Shown: positions 1,611 through 25,387 of the stretch, in pieces
Layout: each line of letters starts with the position of its first letter
Numbering within the stretch: position 1 is the first letter of the stretch
Program-made: the position numbers and the translations under genes
The notes under the pieces: generated by a model
The model's database searches: none
Told to the model about the DNA's origin: nothing
What the model saw: the letters and a program-made list of their open reading frames with translations, nothing else
Source of the DNA: a virus
Lineage: Duplodnaviria; Caudoviricetes
Direction: 5' to 3' (one strand)
DNA: 64,000 nucleotides
Virus record (IMG/VR): IMGVR_UViG_2974541498_000001
Span: 32,001 to 96,000 of that record

Positions 1611-3179
1611 CTAAGCTGACTTAACAGTGCTTAATACATTAGAAACCTTACTATCTCTTTCATTAATTACCTTAACATAATTATCAGATAATTTCAAGAT
1701 ATCTTCTTTAAACTTCGCATGATATTCACTAGGATGCTTAATAGGAAGAACAGCGCTATACTTATCAAAATATTCCCAATTATTAGTAACTGCCCCACCA
1801 ATATTATTTTTATAAGAAATTCCTCGACTACTGCACCAAGTATATAATAATTGTTGTTGGAGTTCTGTAAGATCTGCATCAAAAGTACCATATGCCTGAA
1901 CTAAAGTATTATTATTAACTTCTACAGTAACCCAAGACTTATCAATGTCTGACTTCTTACGTAGGAATAGAATATTAGTCTTACCATCCGCAACAGACTT
2001 AGCGTAAGAAGCTACACAATTACTATTATTACTGCCTTCTTCTGAAATTTCATTTGCATTAAAAGCATCAATAATAAAGTATTCTCCAATCATAGCGTCA
2101 TACTTGCTTTGATTAGCTTTCCAATAGGCAGATACTTTATTATTAAGATTGCCATCTTGAAGAATACTATAATTTTGCGCAACCACATCATGTGCCGTTT
2201 TAAGATACCTTGGGTACTTAGGAGCATTTTTAAATTCCTCGGTCATATTATAGTAGTCATTAAGAATACCTGATGCTTCTTCTATACTAGGGATACCTTG
2301 TTGATGGTAACAGCTACCATATAAATACTTAAATAATCCTTTAACAGTTGTCTTATCATTATCAATAACTTTCCGAATATTGCTTACATAGTAGTCGTTT
2401 TTCCAAAAACTTGTAATTACAGCAAGGATATTATCCTTAATATATTCTTCCCCATCATGATAACCACGTTGCTTATCCACTTGAAGAACAGTGTTAATAA
2501 AGCTAGAAGCAGGTTTATTTAAAGCATCTGTTTTCCCTACATCTTTATAATATGTGGAGGATAAGTTTAACAGTCTGTTGATATAGTGTAAATTTAAAGT
2601 TAGAAGCCGTGTATAGATATCCTTATTAATGGAATTAAGAGCTTTATTAATTGTACCAAATTTTCTAGTGTTATCTACAATATTATAAAGATCCTCTGAT
2701 ATCCCATGAAGCCGATTGTTAAAGTTTTGATATGGATATAGTTCCTTAAACACTTGTTCAAAATTAGGATGCTTCTGAATTCCCCGATAAATACCTCTAC
2801 CAATGTTTTCTTCTTCATTATAGCTATCGCCATAGCAAATTCCCATGGAGTAAAACATATTAAGATCAATATTATCAGTATTACTAAAAGCATTACCATA
2901 ATCAAATAGCTTATTAAGGGTGGTCACAGACATCTTTAATCGTTTACCAGAAACTCCTTCAACAAAGAAACTTCTATTAACTAAATCAATAACAAACCCA
3001 AAGTATTTATATTTAGCCTTCCCATTTTCATACTCATTATATAATCGAGAAAAACCAGAGAATAAACCTTTTTCTTTTGTGTAGAACTTAATACTATACG
3101 TATCCGAGGAATAGTCGCAGTCACTATTAAGAAACTTATCAATAGCTACCTTTTTATCTTTAGCAGTAATATTTTTCAT
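1611..3179 (-). CDS. PcfJ-like domain protein
   Basis: C-terminal DYYNM..YP..LKTAHD...EEG....NCVASY....G..ILFLR....VTVEV pattern. Confidence 0.75.
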   Translation of the reverse strand: MKNITAKDKKVAIDKFLNSDCDYSSDTYSIKFYTKEKGLFSGFSRLYNEYENGKAKYKYFGFVIDLVNRSFFVEGVSGKRLKMSVTTLNKLFDYGNAFSNTDNIDLNMFYSMGICYGDSYNEEENIGRGIYRGIQKHPNFEQVFKELYPYQNFNNRLHGISEDLYNIVDNTRKFGTINKALNSINKDIYTRLLTLNLHYINRLLNLSSTYYKDVGKTDALNKPASSFINTVLQVDKQRGYHDGEEYIKDNILAVITSFWKNDYYVSNIRKVIDNDKTTVKGLFKYLYGSCYHQQGIPSIEEASGILNDYYNMTEEFKNAPKYPRYLKTAHDVVAQNYSILQDGNLNNKVSAYWKANQSKYDAMIGEYFIIDAFNANEISEEGSNNSNCVASYAKSVADGKTNILFLRKKSDIDKSWVTVEVNNNTLVQAYGTFDADLTELQQQLLYTWCSSRGISYKNNIGGAVTNNWEYFDKYSAVLPIKHPSEYHAKFKEDILKLSDNYVKVINERDSKVSNVLSTVKSA

Positions 3180-3203
3180 ACAAGCATCTCCTTTAATAAA
3201 CCA

Positions 3204-3242
3204 ATTATAGCATAATAAAAAGGAACGTCAATAGACATCCCC
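3204..3242 (-). promoter_or_regulatory. sigmaA-type promoter whose -35 lies in an intrinsic terminator hairpin
   Basis: minus strand GGGGATGTC-TATT-GACGTTCC-TTTTT containing TTGACG, followed by TG-C-TATAAT. Confidence 0.65.
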
Positions 3243-3250
3243 AATTTAAT

Positions 3251-3751
3251 TTAAAAATTATATAACATTTCTTGAGTTCTCATAGGGAATCCAAGGCTAT
3301 CTGGGGTAACTTGATACACTTCTGGATACTTTTCTTTATCATCCTTAGTATATCCCTTAGCTTCTTTAAACTTTTCTTCAAGATCGGTTGTATCCATATC
3401 AAGGGTTTTTATATTGAAAACCATGGTAGCAAATTCAAAATACGTTTTTAATATATCAATAATAACATAAGTTTTATACTGATTAATATAAACGCTTCCT
3501 GGGCGTGGGATACCATAATATTTATAGTCTGGAGTAAGTCGAATAGTCATATCTTGACTTCTATTAACTTCTACTTCATCACTAATTAATAGGGTATATT
3601 CATGCTTAATAGTAGGATCAATTTGTGTAACTTCCTGATCCAAAATATAAATGACTACATATGCTTTATCATCTAATACAACAATATCCCCTCTAGAAAC
3701 CGTATCTTGATAACCTGTTATTTCTTCTGTTCTTACAATATAATGATCCAA
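3251..3751 (-). CDS. hypothetical protein
   Basis: 166-aa ORF with TTG start and RBS. Confidence 0.7.
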   Translation of the reverse strand: MDHYIVRTEEITGYQDTVSRGDIVVLDDKAYVVIYILDQEVTQIDPTIKHEYTLLISDEVEVNRSQDMTIRLTPDYKYYGIPRPGSVYINQYKTYVIIDILKTYFEFATMVFNIKTLDMDTTDLEEKFKEAKGYTKDDKEKYPEVYQVTPDSLGFPMRTQEMLYNF

Positions 3752-3763
3752 GTTTATACCCCC

Positions 3764-4918
3764 TTAAAAGGCCATTTTATTATACTTTTGATAAGGTTCA
3801 ATCTTAATGAAGGATAAAATATCCTTTAGATTATCAGACATATAACGGTTAGTAGTCGTTAAGTCCTTTACATTAATAATTAAATCCCCTTCCTTTTCAT
3901 GCAAACTATTCAGAGGAGCATTTAGAACCATAGAGAATTCTGAATCCCCATCTAAACTATCCTTAACCTCTTTTGATAAGGGAACATCATTAGTAGCAAA
4001 AGTTAAGTCCAAGGCAATAGGATTACCTGATAGATCACAGGAATTCCACCCATGATCCTTTAATCCATGGAACGGAATAACCTTATTGTTGCTTAAATGT
4101 ACTTCTACATTATATAGCATTTCATTATTTTCTTGGTCAATATTCAAGTCATTAATAACATCCTTAAAGTCGCCACCCATGTTAAGCTCGAAGGCGATAG
4201 CAGTTAAGCAATCAAAGTTTAACCGAATACGCTTGCTAAATAAGGCAACTTCTGGAATTTGGTCCCAATACTGCTTATCTAGCTTATCCTTCAAGAAGTC
4301 AGATAGTTCTTTTTCTTCAGGGTAATTGAACTTAAAATGGTAGTGGAAACGACCAGGACGATTTAATAAATATTCACTAATAAGATAAGTCTTATTGAGT
4401 GTAATAACAAATAGCTTCTTTCCTCGGCTAGTCCCGTCAAAAACGGGTAATAGCATATCTTGAGTAGTAGGTAATTCATCATCAGAATCTCCATCTTCAT
4501 CTTGTGGGAATACCTTATCAAATTCATCAAATAAGACCATTACTTCTTGGTCGATACTTTGAATAAAATCAGGTAGCCCCGGAGTTGACTGAGTTACTAG
4601 AATAACTGGGATATTATTACTAATACACTTTTCTGCTAGTACTCGGGCGAATAGTGATTTACCAATACCCTTAGCACCACTTAGCATAATACCAAAATTT
4701 TTATTAGATTTGTTAAATGACTTCATGACTTTATTAGACTTTTCCTGTTGATCCCCGTAAACTTTTGTTTTTACTTCAAGATCCTTAATCTTTGATAAAG
4801 AATATCCAGTCTTACTATTAAAGTTAATTCGATAAGTCCCTGTGGGCAAGTTAGTAAGAGAGTTAATAACATCTCCCTCAAAAATAGTATAAACGTTGTC
4901 TTGTTGAATAATTTGCAT
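3764..4918 (-). CDS. AAA+ ATPase
   Basis: GIMLSGAKGIGKS, VLFDEFDK, LLNRPGRF. Confidence 0.9.
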   Translation of the reverse strand: MQIIQQDNVYTIFEGDVINSLTNLPTGTYRINFNSKTGYSLSKIKDLEVKTKVYGDQQEKSNKVMKSFNKSNKNFGIMLSGAKGIGKSLFARVLAEKCISNNIPVILVTQSTPGLPDFIQSIDQEVMVLFDEFDKVFPQDEDGDSDDELPTTQDMLLPVFDGTSRGKKLFVITLNKTYLISEYLLNRPGRFHYHFKFNYPEEKELSDFLKDKLDKQYWDQIPEVALFSKRIRLNFDCLTAIAFELNMGGDFKDVINDLNIDQENNEMLYNVEVHLSNNKVIPFHGLKDHGWNSCDLSGNPIALDLTFATNDVPLSKEVKDSLDGDSEFSMVLNAPLNSLHEKEGDLIINVKDLTTTNRYMSDNLKDILSFIKIEPYQKYNKMAF

Positions 4919-17743: not shown

Positions 17744-19639
17744 ATGGAAAAGTATTCAGGATTACCTTATAATCAGTTTAATGGGAATTTTATTGCTGAT
17801 GTTTTAAAAAGAACTTTTGGAGAAAAGAGTTATTATTCCCCAGATGAATTTGCATATGTTTTAGACTTTTTATATCCACAAAATTATACTTTAAATCATC
17901 ACCAGATTGGATCGGGTAGATTAACGACTAGAGTTCCACAAAGGAATTTAAACTTTCATGCCGCCCAAGATAGAAAATGGCAAGAACAAATATTAGCCGA
18001 TATGCATCCAAATGTGGCTGTTATTAAAAGTCGGCAATTAGGTATAACGGAAATGGGGATCGCTAAAACCCTGCACTGGATTGATACCTATGCCGATAAA
18101 AAAGCTAATGCAGGCTATTTCTTCCCAACTTATCGACAACTAGAAGATTTTACTAAATCTCGTTTTAACATGGTACTGCAAGATGAATATTTAAATTCTA
18201 TTGTGGATAGTAATACTAACAGTCAGAAGATTAAACGTATTCGGGATTCTTATATTTATTTCCGGACTAGTTCAACTCCTGCCGCCGCTGAAGGTGTCGA
18301 TTTATCAGAAGCAACTATTGACGAATATGACCGTGCTCCTGAGCAATCTATTCAGTCTATTAGAAACTCCTTAAAGGGTAACGAATTGCAATATCTATTA
18401 AGGTTCTCTACTCCTAGTGCTCCCGGAGTAGGTGTGGATAGACTATATGATTCTAGTGACCAATGGTACTGGGCTTATACTTGTAAGCATTGTGGTAAGC
18501 AGAATGAGATTAAATATGCTGATTTTGACTCTACCATTTCTGGGGACAAGAATGGAAGTATTCAATTAATCAATAAAGATGGTATTGACTTAGCGGCTAA
18601 AACAGTTGCTGAAGGAACTTATCGATATGTTTGCCGATATTGTGGTCATCCTTTAGATAGGAATGGTGGTATGTGGGTCCCTCGTTACCCTGAGCGTACT
18701 TCTAATAACCAGGGGGTAAGAGGATATTATATTAGCCAAACTAACGCTGTATGGATTTCTGCGTCCCAATTAAAGACAAGTGAATTGCAGTCTCCTTCTA
18801 AGCAAGAATTCTTTAACTATGATCTAGGACTACCTTTTTTAGATGCAAAACTATCGGTTATCCCTACTGATATTTATAATCACGCTACTAGAATACACCC
18901 GGCTAAAAATAGAGAGGAATATACTTTCATTACGGTAGGTATTGACTGGGGTGTTCAACATTCCATTATTGTTTATGGTATGCGAGACAGTGGGCAACTA
19001 GAAGTTATTAATAATTTCCAAGTCCAAGGTATTGGGGCCACTGATGCAAATCGAGTTGGCGCAGATGTAAGAGAGATTGCTAGAAAACTAGATCCGTATA
19101 ATCCTGATTTAATCCTTTGTGATATTGGGGATAGTGGGGAAAAATTAGCTGAATTAATGAATATGATGGGAAGAAATGTTGTATTCGGTTGTCAAAACAA
19201 TAGTTCGCCTACTACTGGATTAGCCACTTCTAGTGGGAGTATCCGCCCAGTATGGAACGCGAATAGCAACACCGTTAAAGTAGATAAATTACTAGAGAAT
19301 AAGCGGCATATATCCATGATTAAGCAAGGGAAAGTTGGCTTCTATAAAGAAAGAACTCCTCAATTACAACGGTTAGTTAAACACTGGGGTAATGTTATTA
19401 TTAAATCTATTGAAAACAATAATGGAATTAATAGAGAAGTTGTTACTAGACGGTCTTCTAATAATGAAGGCGGGGATCACTATGCCCAAGCCGAAATTTT
19501 AGCTAATATTGCTATGGATTATTTGAGAGAAAACAAATTAGGCACTTTTGGTATCGCTTATGATGTTATTGGTGATACTAAAACCAACGAACCGACTGAT
19601 ATTCAAAAAAGAATTAATGATAATTCCTTATTTGATTAA
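17744..19639 (+). CDS. terL: terminase large subunit
   Basis: VIKSRQLGITE Walker A, ATIDEYD Walker B, FSTP coupling motif, CxxC Zn motifs, VGIDWG and DHYAQA nuclease motifs. Confidence 0.95.
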   Translation: MEKYSGLPYNQFNGNFIADVLKRTFGEKSYYSPDEFAYVLDFLYPQNYTLNHHQIGSGRLTTRVPQRNLNFHAAQDRKWQEQILADMHPNVAVIKSRQLGITEMGIAKTLHWIDTYADKKANAGYFFPTYRQLEDFTKSRFNMVLQDEYLNSIVDSNTNSQKIKRIRDSYIYFRTSSTPAAAEGVDLSEATIDEYDRAPEQSIQSIRNSLKGNELQYLLRFSTPSAPGVGVDRLYDSSDQWYWAYTCKHCGKQNEIKYADFDSTISGDKNGSIQLINKDGIDLAAKTVAEGTYRYVCRYCGHPLDRNGGMWVPRYPERTSNNQGVRGYYISQTNAVWISASQLKTSELQSPSKQEFFNYDLGLPFLDAKLSVIPTDIYNHATRIHPAKNREEYTFITVGIDWGVQHSIIVYGMRDSGQLEVINNFQVQGIGATDANRVGADVREIARKLDPYNPDLILCDIGDSGEKLAELMNMMGRNVVFGCQNNSSPTTGLATSSGSIRPVWNANSNTVKVDKLLENKRHISMIKQGKVGFYKERTPQLQRLVKHWGNVIIKSIENNNGINREVVTRRSSNNEGGDHYAQAEILANIAMDYLRENKLGTFGIAYDVIGDTKTNEPTDIQKRINDNSLFD

Positions 19640-19669
19640 AAAGGGAACCCCGGATAGGGGTCCCTTTTT
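19639..19669. terminator. bidirectional intrinsic terminator at convergent junction
   Basis: AAAAGGGAACCC-CGGATA-GGGGTCCCTTTTT. Confidence 0.8.
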
Positions 19670-19724: not shown

Positions 19725-20033
19725 CTAAGCATCGGGTAACTCAATATACTCGGACTCATGTTCCCAGAAATTATGCTGAGTTTTCGATCCTTCAAACCGT
19801 TTAAAGTCAGCGAATGAGTTCCAATGAAAATCTGGATTCTTTTCTAGTTCTTTATCCGCTAAGTCTTGTAAATAATGGGAAAATCCAGAGAATACCTTTA
19901 CCTGAGATAGCCCCATTTCATCCTTAACTGTAGCAGAGTATTCTTTCTTAAATAATAGCTTTCCATTCTGTACTACCTTAAAGTCATAGTTACCTGAGCT
20001 ATTCTTTACAAAGTCAATCTTAATATCCGTCAT
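19725..20033 (-). CDS. hypothetical protein
   Basis: 102-aa ORF with AGGAG RBS. Confidence 0.7.
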   Translation of the reverse strand: MTDIKIDFVKNSSGNYDFKVVQNGKLLFKKEYSATVKDEMGLSQVKVFSGFSHYLQDLADKELEKNPDFHWNSFADFKRFEGSKTQHNFWEHESEYIELPDA

Positions 20034-20048
20034 TTTATCACTCCTAAA

Positions 20049-20777
20049 TTATAATGATTTTACTTTCTGATTACTAACGAAATTTCTTAACCAAACTTCT
20101 TTTCCTAGTAATTGGTTGTTAACGAAATTGCTTAACCAAACTTCTTTTTCCGGTAATTGATGACTAACGAAATGACTTAGCCAAACTTCTTTTCCTGGTC
20201 TTTGATTACTGATGAAATTGCTTATCCAAACTTCTTTTGCCGGTCTTTGGTTGTTAACGAAACTGCTTAACCAAACTTCTTTTCCCGGTCTTTGGTCATT
20301 AACGAAATTACTTAGCCAAACTTCTTTTGCCGGTCTTTGGCTACTAACGAAATTGCTTAGCCAAACACCTACTCGTTTATCTCTATCCAATAACCTTTTA
20401 ATATCAGAAGTAGACATCCCCGTAAACTTAGGATTATTCCGATTGGACTTAACGAACCCTTTTTCACTAGCCCAAGTTTGTCCTCCAGAATCAGCCTTTT
20501 GATAGAAACTATCCTGAGTGTCATATTTCTGTACTAATTGACCTTCCCGTAAAGAAACTTCATCAGCATTCTTACAAGTCTGCTCATAATCCCAAGTAAA
20601 GTCATATACTAATTTTTCCTTCTTTAATTCTTCTACATGTACCTCTTCATAGTCAGAGAAATCCTTATCTTCTTTGTGCTCGCTGAAGCGTTGCTTAATT
20701 GTCCGATTAGTATAACCCACATAAATAGGGATACCATCACCATATATTACATAGAATCTTGAAGTTATCTTAAACAT
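20049..20777 (-). CDS. GIY-YIG endonuclease domain fused to 7 tandem 15-aa repeats
   Basis: FYVIY..IPIYVGYTNRTIKQRFSEH...SLRE motifs; C-terminal (KEVWLSNFVxxQRPx)7. Confidence 0.8.
   Translation of the reverse strand: MFKITSRFYVIYGDGIPIYVGYTNRTIKQRFSEHKEDKDFSDYEEVHVEELKKEKLVYDFTWDYEQTCKNADEVSLREGQLVQKYDTQDSFYQKADSGGQTWASEKGFVKSNRNNPKFTGMSTSDIKRLLDRDKRVGVWLSNFVSSQRPAKEVWLSNFVNDQRPGKEVWLSSFVNNQRPAKEVWISNFISNQRPGKEVWLSHFVSHQLPEKEVWLSNFVNNQLLGKEVWLRNFVSNQKVKSL
20066..20366 (-). repeat. 45-bp coding tandem repeat, 7 copies
   Basis: CCAAAC recurs at 20091, 20136, 20181, 20226, 20271, 20316 and 20361. Confidence 0.95.
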
Positions 20778-20779
20778 GA

Positions 20780-21331
20780 CTAGTATTCGACTCCTTCATT
20801 AATTGGCAATGTTACACATCTAAATCCATTATCACTACCAGGTAGTTTCATAGAAGTCAGTACCAGGTAACTTTCTGAACCTGCACTAGATATGGTAACC
20901 TCTACTTTTTTAAGGTCATCAATGTTTTTTCCCTTGTGAAAGTCTACTCCACGTAGGTACAGAATGCTGTACACACCTGATGTTGCATCTCCTGTGATAC
21001 TATCACACCTACCAAGAGTGTTATCTTCAGCATCATACAGAGTAATAGATGGGTACCATGCATCCTTTTTGGTATCCTTAGTACTCTCACTGGTACCTAA
21101 AACATTTCCCTCTGAATCTGATAAAATAATCTTCGGGTGTTCCGATTGATTCTTGCTTGGATCAAATAAGTGAAGTTTTTCTAGTAGTTCTTCTACCATA
21201 TCCATGCCTTCTTGATATTCTTTACTATCAATTTCTGTACAATGCTGTAACCAGTAGAACAAATTATCTAGATAATCTTGAACTTCTATAATGTTATCCT
21301 CTAACTTTTGTGCTACTTCTTCATTCTTCAT
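20780..21331 (-). CDS. hypothetical protein
   Basis: 183-aa ORF with internal duplication ILSDSEGNVLG / TLYDAEDNTLG. Confidence 0.7.
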   Translation of the reverse strand: MKNEEVAQKLEDNIIEVQDYLDNLFYWLQHCTEIDSKEYQEGMDMVEELLEKLHLFDPSKNQSEHPKIILSDSEGNVLGTSESTKDTKKDAWYPSITLYDAEDNTLGRCDSITGDATSGVYSILYLRGVDFHKGKNIDDLKKVEVTISSAGSESYLVLTSMKLPGSDNGFRCVTLPINEGVEY

Positions 21332-21879: not shown

Positions 21880-22389
21880 TTATTTCACCCCAGTGTAATC
21901 ATGGGCAATCTTAGCGCTAACACATGCGACTAATCCCACAATTAAATCGTCTAAGAAAACATTTACAGAAGTATTATCCTGATCTAGCTTAGCAATAATC
22001 CCAGTCTTCTCTTTATCTAACCATCCAGCACTGGTGATTCCAATTCCTCCATATAAGGAGGAAAAGCCATAATAAGCTAACACTTCGTCTACGGCGAATA
22101 CTCCCAGATCTTCATCCATAATAGTTTGTAGTGGTTCATCTAATTCCTTATTAGAAGCATCTTTGTCTAAAGCAATTCCTACCATGCAACAATTTAAGAT
22201 ATCCCATTTCCTAGTGATTTCTAAAGTAGCTGAAATATATTTTTCTAAGGGAACTTCTGGTAAGAACTTCTTTTGCAACCCCATAGCTAATTCTCCAATG
22301 GACTTTTCTGTTACTCCTTTGCTATTTAAATAATTCCATACGTATCCATATGCGAGCGTGCTTGGATACTTATCACGGTTATTTAACAT
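21880..22389 (-). CDS. pgpA: phosphatidylglycerophosphatase A family protein (YutG-like)
   Basis: GIALD...D.GVFAVDEVLA....YGGIG.T..GWLDKEK.GII...VFLDDLI.GLVA. Confidence 0.85.
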   Translation of the reverse strand: MLNNRDKYPSTLAYGYVWNYLNSKGVTEKSIGELAMGLQKKFLPEVPLEKYISATLEITRKWDILNCCMVGIALDKDASNKELDEPLQTIMDEDLGVFAVDEVLAYYGFSSLYGGIGITSAGWLDKEKTGIIAKLDQDNTSVNVFLDDLIVGLVACVSAKIAHDYTGVK

Positions 22390-22625: not shown

Positions 22626-23375
22626 TTATTCAATTTTGCTTAATCCCTGCTTAATACGCCCTCGCTTAAACCAAGGGGATACCGTAAAGGCTAGAATATC
22701 ATTAATAACATAAATACTAGCGTTAACAGCCATAGCGATAGTAGCGTCACCTTGGCTAAAGGTAACAGCCCAAAGGATTAATTGGGCTATACCACTAGCT
22801 AACCACCAAAAATATTGGTTGTTATATCGTAAGAAGCACATAACTCCAGCAGTAAGACTTACCGCAAAGGCAAATGCATCAAACCAAGGACGAGGATCAT
22901 TTGTAAAGGCACCAATAGCCCACCCAGATAATAAATAAACTAGCAGGGTGGATACTAACGCAATAACCCATTCCTTCTTAGCAAACTTTCGCAAGTTATT
23001 AACAGTATTATCATTCCAAGTTTTAACTGCGAATAGAACGGGGAGGTCTAGAGTAACCACATAGGCAATTTGTTCTAGGATACTTAGGTAGTTCTTAGCA
23101 TGCCACCCCACATAGATAAAACAGATAGCTGATAATAATCCAAGCCATCCATTAACGCTCTTAGCGGCATTAATAGATAAAATGCATAAAACTCCCAGTG
23201 TTGTTCCAATAAATGTTAGGGTAGTATCTAAAGTAATAGGTCCCCCAATAAATAATGCCAATTGAAATCCAAAACTAAAAAAGTAAAGCATGTAATTCTG
23301 AATCGGCCAGCCTTTCAACTGACTAACCAACCATGAAAAATAATTCTGTTTTGTTGCAACTTCCTTTGAATCCAA
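22626..23375 (-). CDS. pnuC: PnuC-family nucleoside/nicotinamide riboside transporter
   Basis: 7-8 TM helices; GTTLGVLC, NGWLGLLSA, DPRPWFDA, QYFWW motifs. Confidence 0.85.
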   Translation of the reverse strand: MDSKEVATKQNYFSWLVSQLKGWPIQNYMLYFFSFGFQLALFIGGPITLDTTLTFIGTTLGVLCILSINAAKSVNGWLGLLSAICFIYVGWHAKNYLSILEQIAYVVTLDLPVLFAVKTWNDNTVNNLRKFAKKEWVIALVSTLLVYLLSGWAIGAFTNDPRPWFDAFAFAVSLTAGVMCFLRYNNQYFWWLASGIAQLILWAVTFSQGDATIAMAVNASIYVINDILAFTVSPWFKRGRIKQGLSKIE

Positions 23376-24479: not shown

Positions 24480-24671
24480 TTATTTCCCCGTAATAAATAC
24501 AGTCCCTAAAGGAAATTCATATTCCTCTGCAAAATCATCATCTGGGGAAACTTGTAATTCTGGATCATAATTAGGAATTTCTAAAGCTCCCCCTGTCGAA
24601 TGATTATAGATAGCAACTTCTGTTTCACCATCATATTTCTCTAATTCCTTAATTAAATCTTTAACTTTCAT
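24480..24671 (-). CDS. small hypothetical protein (MKVKDLIKELEKYD family)
   Basis: 63 aa, ATGA overlap. Confidence 0.7.
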   Translation of the reverse strand: MKVKDLIKELEKYDGETEVAIYNHSTGGALEIPNYDPELQVSPDDDFAEEYEFPLGTVFITGK

Positions 24672-25387
24672 TTTAAATACCCGATAAAATATTGATTATC
24701 TTCCTTTTGCGAAGTAGGTGTAATATCTGTAATAACTTCATATAAAACCTTCTCTGGATTGTTATTAAATTCCTTGTAATAATAAAGAGTTCCAATATTA
24801 CTAGTATGGTTATAGATAAAGTCTACGATATCATCTACTGTAATAATATATTCTTTACATTCAGTAAAATACCCGCGACTATCTTCTTTAATAGCAGAAG
24901 TAATAGCAATCATAGTCCCATTACTCCAACCAATATTCTTCACTAGCAGACCAGTATTTAAAGGTAACCCAACACTATTATGATTTGCTTCAAGCTTATC
25001 TGACTGTTCAAATAAATCTTGAATAGTTCCTAATACTTTCTTGTGCATTTCCTTCTTAGAGTTTGGAACTACTACTCCGCCATGAATAGTATCAATAGGC
25101 TTATTTTTATCCTGAAAATAGAAATCTTGCCAATCATCTGCTAATAAATCCTCTTGGCTAGGAGACCAGCCTACCTGTAGTTCCCCCTTACTATTTTTTA
25201 AATCAATATGGGGGTTAATTGTAACTTCCTTATCAGTTAGACTAAATCTTAAAGTATCATTATTTATCTTACTCTTAGGAATAACTGATCCGCTTTCAAG
25301 GTAAATAAACATATTCTTACCATTCCAGCCTTTTCGATAGGCTTTATTACCTCTCATAACACTCTTCAATACTTCATAGAATTTCAT
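24668..25387 (-). CDS. DUF2829 / Tad2-like N-terminal domain fused to unknown C-terminal domain
   Basis: MKFYEVL...GNKAYRKGWNGKNMFIYL...PHIDLKN..G....GWSPSQEDLLADDW. Confidence 0.75.
   Translation of the reverse strand: MKFYEVLKSVMRGNKAYRKGWNGKNMFIYLESGSVIPKSKINNDTLRFSLTDKEVTINPHIDLKNSKGELQVGWSPSQEDLLADDWQDFYFQDKNKPIDTIHGGVVVPNSKKEMHKKVLGTIQDLFEQSDKLEANHNSVGLPLNTGLLVKNIGWSNGTMIAITSAIKEDSRGYFTECKEYIITVDDIVDFIYNHTSNIGTLYYYKEFNNNPEKVLYEVITDITPTSQKEDNQYFIGYLK

Follow-up and report, generated by a model that had tools for sequence, protein, structure and literature searches.

The closest described systems differ in the size and type of their DNA-binding modules. A TALE repeat has 33–35 amino acids, folds into two helices and reads a single base through one di-residue loop, and NUMOD3 (PF07460) is a short helical DNA-binding motif, comparable to the minor-groove helix of I-TevI, which is often repeated, at times in tandem, in GIY-YIG and HNH homing endonucleases. 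To our knowledge, the DNA-binding domain is C-terminal and follows a linker in every characterized GIY-YIG homing endonuclease (see also PMC10448857). Homing-type nucleases with tandem, recombining DNA-binding modules have already been described: T5orf172/GIY-YIG-type genes with repeated CapR/DUF723/DUF4397 zinc-finger modules are present in vibriophage ICP1 and others, and recombination between the intragenic repeats of these genes leads to duplications and deletions (PMC10448857). Such genes sit at boundaries of genetic exchange, their homing is not inferable from sequence, and the nucleases that they encode are often co-opted in phage conflicts (PMC10448857).

The DNA examined here is a stretch of 64,000 nucleotides (the window) from a complete virus record of 136,608 bp. 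The nearest isolated relative of the source phage is Levilactobacillus phage ENFP1 (Herelleviridae, Tybeckvirus), which is about 90% identical where the two align, and nearly identical DNA is present in food and food-fermentation metagenomes. The record carries a single copy of a gene located at 20049–20777 on the minus strand of the window (stop codon included; coordinates from the open reading frame list and its translation), which encodes a 242-residue protein, P0001.

Like I-TevI, I-BmoI and the T4 Seg proteins, P0001 begins with a GIY-YIG domain, which a linker joins to a C-terminal part that we predict to bind the substrate, and, like phage GIY-YIG homing endonuclease genes, its gene is free-standing, belongs to a lytic phage and is variably present between relatives. 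Unlike in I-TevI, I-BmoI and Seg, the C-terminus of the P0001 family consists of 2–22 repeats with an identical length of 15 residues and not of a zinc finger, minor-groove helix, helix-turn-helix (HTH) or NUMOD motif, and, unlike classical homing endonucleases, the family travels with a conserved partner gene of about 100 codons. The combination of a nuclease domain with a variable number of tandem, here putative, binding modules is shared with the T5orf172/zinc-finger arrays, whose modules, however, contain cysteines and occupy the other end of the protein, whereas the P0001 unit is 15 residues long, has no cysteines, displays four hypervariable positions and is only putatively DNA-binding. 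Near-identical tandem repeats with a hydrophobic scaffold and polymorphism at a few fixed N/S/H/D/G positions are also a feature of Xanthomonas TALE, Burkholderia Bat/BurrH and marine MOrTL proteins, but the P0001 unit has two variable pairs in 15 residues and no sequence or fold relation to TALE. Finally, the unit resembles NUMOD3 in being short, tandem and of similar size, but NUMOD3 is basic and hydrophilic whereas the P0001 unit has a hydrophobic W/L/F/V/M core and gives no NUMOD3 match in Pfam at E-values up to 1.

We propose, with a confidence somewhat better than even, that P0001 is a mobile homing-type GIY-YIG nuclease in which a new 15-residue repeat module is the target-binding part, diversifies by recombination of its units and is accompanied by an obligate small partner. 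In Herelleviridae phages of Lactobacillaceae, the nuclease gene and its partner would move together as a two-gene cassette. The I-TevI-like GIY-YIG catalytic domain would cut DNA, and the C-terminal array would bind the substrate, most likely DNA, in place of NUMOD, HTH or zinc-finger modules. The hydrophobic scaffold and the four short polar residues of each repeat would build up one long binding surface, which would be rapidly remade, with a shift of the target, as 45-bp units recombine and phages swap entire arrays.

Catalytic domain and repeat array

P0001 can be divided into three parts, all encoded on the minus strand: a GIY-YIG catalytic core (residues 1 to about 97, 20487–20777), which is delimited by the AlphaFold2 (AF2) model, the structural match to I-TevI, the invariant motif residues and Pfam; a linker (residues 98–135, 20373–20486; AF2 pLDDT 66–83), the terminal helix of which runs into the first repeat; and an array of seven 15-residue repeats with the scaffold W-L-x-x-F-V-x-x-Q (residues 136–242, 20052–20372), the last of which ends in a short basic tail.

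The GIY-YIG domain, which an initial annotation had recognized from motifs alone, is borne out by both profile and structure comparisons. P0001 itself falls just short of the Pfam PF01541 cut-off (22.3 versus 22.6 bits), whereas 47 of the 51 aligned relatives match this profile at E ≤ 0.01 (best E-value 3.5e-8). The AF2 model of residues 1–97 has a pLDDT of about 90 and a β-β-α-β-β-α order of secondary structure elements. Its best structural match is the catalytic domain of I-TevI (Z 6.9, rmsd 2.6 Å, 78/92 residues, 23% identity), with an alignment that spans model residues 5–96, followed by T4 EndoII (Z 5.1) and then UvrC, and the best ten Foldseek rows are all GIY-YIG nucleases. The alignment of 51 relatives shows no variation at Y19, G21, R30, H34 and E78 and almost none at Y9 and Y12, and the motif order is standard, with Y9/Y12 in the first strand followed by Y19-V-G21 and then by the Arg, His and Glu. 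By this order, we take these residues to be the putative equivalents of the I-TevI catalytic residues. Their invariance means that the catalytic machinery of P0001 looks intact, and we infer from the identity of the domain that the members of the family are nucleases.

The translation contains exactly the seven repeats that had been noted. At the DNA level, Tandem Repeats Finder detects a 45-bp tandem repeat (20071–20366; 6.6 copies, 82% matches, no indels) that occupies the 3′ third of the gene. A search among 5.8 billion proteins returned 215 relatives of 166–336 residues. In the 120 relatives listed, 780 of the 789 distances between repeats are exactly 15 residues, and the copy number ranges from 2 to 12, some members carrying just two or three repeats; with the distant clade described below, it reaches 22. 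We number the array positions such that the tryptophan is position 1, and positions 3, 4, 7 and 8 thus correspond to positions 6, 7, 10 and 11 of the initial annotation, which had located hypervariable polar residues there. This concentration of the variation holds for the family as a whole. In 95 proteins with at least five repeats, the mean within-protein entropy is 1.5–1.8 bits at these four positions, 0.04–0.36 bits at the scaffold positions 1, 2, 5, 6, 9 and 13, and intermediate (about 1.2 bits) at positions 10 and 15. The copy-number variation that the initial annotation had raised thus extends from 2 to 22 repeats, with the variation staying at the same four positions. Further forms of the scaffold are found in metagenome loci (WLxxFV, DIxxFV, YLxxFV, YMxxFV and other cores), and every one of them retains the period of 15 and the location of the variable places.

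When the array alone was compared by phmmer to 1.84 billion representative proteins of all lengths, periodic relatives were found solely behind the same GIY-YIG domain. The other long matches were mostly eukaryotic low-complexity proteins and not true relatives. A glycine-rich, tape-measure-like metagenome protein of 418 residues (P0125), which has about ten 15-residue W-L-x-x-F repeats and no nuclease domain, was also set aside as unrelated, and its repeat is probably convergent. Consistent with the earlier view that the repeat belongs to none of the NUMOD, HTH or zinc-finger families, the unit has no match among the Pfam, NCBIfam, PHROG-annotated or PADLOC families; Pfam hmmscan at E ≤ 1 finds no such motif in the P0001 array and no TAL-effector match in P0001. 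The CapR, DUF723 and DUF4397 families match neither P0001 nor the 51 relatives, whose arrays gave scattered chance matches to helical families and nothing more, and the repeats have no conserved cysteine. NCBIfam and PADLOC return nothing for the nuclease, the partner or the one distant-clade member submitted to them. Sequence and profile searches of solved structures found nothing meaningful, and literature searches on the 15-residue repeat and its phage genes found no description. The array, which is found with the GIY-YIG domain alone and the unit of which is in no family library, thus appears to be new as judged from sequence.

The array is also seen in a distant clade (L050–L058; e.g. L050, 2756–4059), the nuclease domains of which are about 25% identical to that of P0001. 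These proteins have a WLxxWV core, 7–22 repeats and very basic linkers (about +3 per repeat), and the combination of basic linkers with up to 22 repeats fits nucleic-acid binding. The flanks of L050 look bacterial (a lipoprotein and a transporter) and those of L057 are phage-like. Conversely, the nuclease domain of another locus (L042, 63–1115) is 51% identical to that of P0001 and is joined to an unrelated, non-repeat C-terminal part of 220 residues without a Pfam match, which is evidence for domain shuffling at the linker.

The partner gene

The nuclease gene had been described as free-standing and close to terL. One gene does separate the two: the partner gene (19725–20033, minus strand; 102 residues, phrog_25372), which begins 15 nt downstream of the nuclease gene in the same operon. 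It is followed by a two-way terminator hairpin (19644–19664) that a consensus scan detected on both strands (3 sites compared to 0.8 expected in shuffles) and that separates the partner gene from the convergent terL, the right-hand neighbor of the cassette (17744–19639, plus strand; Pfam GpA_ATPase; phrog_675, E 3e-162). The left edge of the cassette is formed by a gene for a 183-residue protein located upstream of the nuclease gene (20780–21331, minus strand).

Within the Lactobacillaceae-phage set, almost all complete loci, among them those with the most divergent repeat types, have a partner homologue beside the nuclease gene. The homologues are conserved and about 100 residues long, and, among isolated phages, the partner is present only where the nuclease gene is present; phage Lb338-1 is without a partner. 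A conserved small protein that travels with the nuclease gene in this manner is apparently a second new element of the system. The AF2 model of the partner (pLDDT 91) shows a three-stranded sheet followed by three helices. This fold has no convincing structural neighbor (best Z 5.2), and an Atlas search with the partner gave no usable match. In the distant clade, the nuclease gene is always preceded by a conserved, overlapping 79-residue open reading frame that has no demonstrable relation to the partner (hhalign probability 0.8%).

Partners are similar where the repeat types are, irrespective of the nuclease domain. Compared to the window, the nuclease domains of DI-type loci are 85–88% identical and their partners 35–40%, whereas in M-type loci the corresponding values are 71–78% and 48–63%. 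This may reflect either contact between the two proteins or merely a crossover point that leaves the array and the partner gene linked.

These relationships raise the alternative that the array is a protein-binding or self-assembly scaffold. Its ligand would then be the partner, acting as an inhibitor, immunity factor or adaptor, or a protein of the host or of a rival phage, and its variation would result from protein-protein co-evolution. We consider this explanation unlikely. It accounts for the conservation of the partner beside the gene across all repeat types of the Lactobacillaceae-phage set and for the manner in which the partner follows the repeat type in DI-type and M-type loci, but, as the array and the partner gene are adjacent, one crossover in the linker explains their joint inheritance without contact. 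It would also accommodate those arrays that are acidic, and the pattern of the array resembles that of ankyrin and LRR proteins, in which variable polar residues on a conserved scaffold are likewise a hallmark of protein-binding repeats. A copy number of 2 to 22 is, however, hard to reconcile with a single ligand of 100 residues; moreover, the distant clade has no detectable homologue of the partner, and Lb338-1 has no partner.

Mobility of the cassette

To return to the proposed homing-type nuclease, the two genes behave as a unit in the comparison of syntenic genomes. The 183-residue protein has homologues at the same edge in phage 3-521 (gp022) and in locus L009, and the cassette follows it in L009 only. 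There, the nuclease and partner genes make up a 1.1-kb cassette, in place of which 3-521 has 0.3 kb with an unrelated 62-residue open reading frame between the same flanks (84–87% identical). As both genes are present in L009 and absent in 3-521, the nuclease and its partner were acquired or deleted jointly. At least five genomic contexts harbor the cassette. Homing would be in keeping with (i) this presence/absence pattern, (ii) the several contexts and (iii) the occurrence of decayed copies.

Several individual loci merit description. Locus L039 has two family members (1663–2637 and 2989–4110, 324 and 373 residues, respectively) with a partner gene between them. The 136-kb contig FUFK010042550.1 harbors two copies, of which L047 is intact and L049 is decayed, with many stops in the repeat part. 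In phage LpeD (L002, 3980–4816), the frame is open but contains no ATG, GTG or TTG before the nuclease domain, the start codon being either lost or non-canonical, and the GenBank annotation comprises the repeat part alone (orf176). Phage LP65 (L005, 3977–4818) has a cassette with two repeats shortly upstream of orf70, a Rad50/SbcC-like ATPase gene that is labeled primase in the record; an SbcD/gp47-like nuclease gene (orf75) is located upstream of the cassette, past the small genes orf74 and orf73.

The cassette could instead encode a domesticated weapon or housekeeping nuclease, directed for example against host or competitor-phage DNA, in which the partner shields the phage's own DNA and the array provides general DNA affinity or avidity. 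T4 EndoII, the second-best structural match of the catalytic domain (Z 5.1), is a host-DNA-degrading GIY-YIG enzyme, and the cassette lies among accessory genes that include a Tad2-like anti-defense gene. Wide variation in copy number is what avidity predicts, but avidity needs no constrained diversification at four fixed positions. The caution about inferring homing and the frequent co-option of such nucleases in phage conflicts (PMC10448857) also lend this explanation some weight, against which stand the variable occupancy of a single site, the diversity of contexts, the decayed copies and the location at an exchange boundary, all of them traits of mobile nucleases. Taken together, we find a domesticated enzyme of this kind rather improbable.

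Diversification of the array and its possible ligand

To describe how the array evolves, we obtained Nei-Gojobori counts within eight genes and compared the scaffold codons to the variable codons and to the linker. The scaffold is under strong purifying selection (pN 0.00–0.08, pS 0.24–0.84). The pN of the variable codons is 0.21–0.65, which is about equal to the synonymous divergence of the scaffold and linker (pS about 0.1–0.8). At positions 4, 7 and 8, 89–97% of the variable codons are NNY. Serine is encoded in the array by AGY in 169 cases and by TCN in 2, compared to a ratio of 118:151 in the nuclease domains, and the variable alphabet N/S/H/D/G/T is the neighborhood of AAY/AGY within one or two steps. 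The retention of a third-base pyrimidine at 89–97% points to selection against K, Q, E and R, which have NNR codons, and hydrophobic residues are likewise excluded from the variable positions. As judged from these codon patterns, the array is subject to constrained diversification at fixed positions, as in binding repeats. The initial annotation had likened the N/S/D/H residues to the base-reading residues of TALE RVDs and the PPR code. The restricted polar alphabet is confirmed by our analysis, but the choice of these residues for reading bases is not: since the alphabet amounts to the AAY/AGY codon neighborhood, the case for such a choice is weaker, and the likeness of the variable residues to TALE RVDs may be partly mutational. 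The NNY/AAY spectrum also prompted us to consider a diversity-generating retroelement, which we rejected as the genome has no reverse transcriptase: RVT_1 has no match in the complete 136,608-bp genome, whereas the control genomes were positive.

In accord with the suggestion that the target might change by 45-bp repeat expansion or shuffling, arrays are seen to differ by whole units. The array of P0002 is that of P0001 with three additional units, the last six units being identical, and the nuclease domains of the two proteins differ at 15 of 135 residues. Similarly, L012 equals L016 minus exactly three units (135 bp) at 95% DNA identity. Many pairs with nuclease domains that are 94–98% identical have no repeat in common in order, a turnover that is inflated by the clustering of the database at 90% identity. 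Compared to ENFP1, the DNA of the window is about 90% identical through the nuclease domain and falls to background near residue 122, which places a recombination boundary in the linker and agrees with the observation that such nuclease genes sit at boundaries of exchange (PMC10448857). The window and L006 have their insertion site in common, with flanks that are 87–93% identical, and carry different arrays. When metagenome contigs were aligned to the locus, the assemblies were seen to end within the repeats, and none showed a clean junction at a 45-bp multiple.

AF2 gives no usable fold for the array. In the model of the whole protein, the array is one continuous helix of low confidence (pLDDT 40–50), and the earlier placement of the variable residues at i/i+4 on one helix face, which assumed a helix, finds no backing there. 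Short helices would be compatible with the spacing of the hydrophobic residues (i, i+1, i+4, i+5, i+8) and with the P-x-E-E motif that opens the unit. Turns would be equally compatible with the G, N and S residues that occupy four of the nine core positions, and these residues, which would be mid-helix, argue against a stable array helix, the helical hydrophobic moment of which would be low (0.13–0.33). A β-solenoid with 15 residues per coil, for which G, N, S and D are turn formers, is a further possible fold, yet the repeats have no consistent inward-facing five-residue pattern. We also looked for a super-period of two or three repeats and rejected it: repeats are equally similar whatever their separation (identities of 0.63, 0.63, 0.62, etc.), and proteins with an even number of repeats are not distinctly more frequent (67, compared to 53). 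The net charge of the array ranges from −1.5 to +2.9 per repeat across the family, some arrays being acidic.

DNA is nonetheless the most likely ligand by analogy, and the array is probably a new targeting module of a known kind of selfish nuclease. Counting against the homing reading are the acidic arrays, the members with two or three repeats, the low confidence of the array model, the lack of a family or structure link to DNA binding and a strictly conserved partner that is outside the classical picture. In a stronger version of the proposal, each 15-residue unit would be a very small modular nucleic-acid reader that contacts one or two bases via the pairs 3–4 and 7–8, the order of the units would spell the target of the nuclease, and phages would retarget the enzyme by 45-bp shuffling. 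We regard such a code as doubtful. The different arrays of the window and L006 at a shared insertion site are a hint against a simple residue-to-base code and fit poorly with a fixed homing site that is read by one.

If the array binds DNA, it would be an undescribed and unusually compact module that is naturally joined to a monomeric nicking and cutting domain, and its hundreds of natural variants could be searched for a rule of recognition. Should there be no code, the repertoire of phage homing-type nucleases would still gain a repeat module that is not zinc-based and an obligate small partner. The array gene also marks a recombination boundary that shapes the Lactobacillus phage genomes of food fermentations.

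The remaining explanation, that the repeats are a tail of low complexity, prone to slippage, weakly constrained and without a function of its own, would suit the near-neutral rate of the variable codons, their one- or two-step AAY/AGY alphabet and the lack of an AF2 fold, but is very improbable in view of the scaffold pN and pS values given above, the exact 15-residue register (780 of 789 spacings), the retention of the scaffold in a clade with a nuclease domain that is about 25% identical, and the third-base pyrimidine bias with its selection against K, Q, E and R.

The accessory block near the cassette contains three further genes, all on the minus strand. The product of the first (24668–25387, 239 residues) has an N-terminal Tad2-like domain (Thoeris anti-defense 2; PF11195, E 2e-22) and is a candidate anti-Thoeris protein of a Lactobacillus phage. 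The other two encode a PgpA-like phosphatidylglycerophosphatase (21880–22389; PF04608, E 3e-13) and a PnuC-type nicotinamide mononucleotide transporter (22626–23375; PF04973, E 9e-29). The location of this importer near the Tad2-like gene could have a bearing on NAD-depleting defenses.
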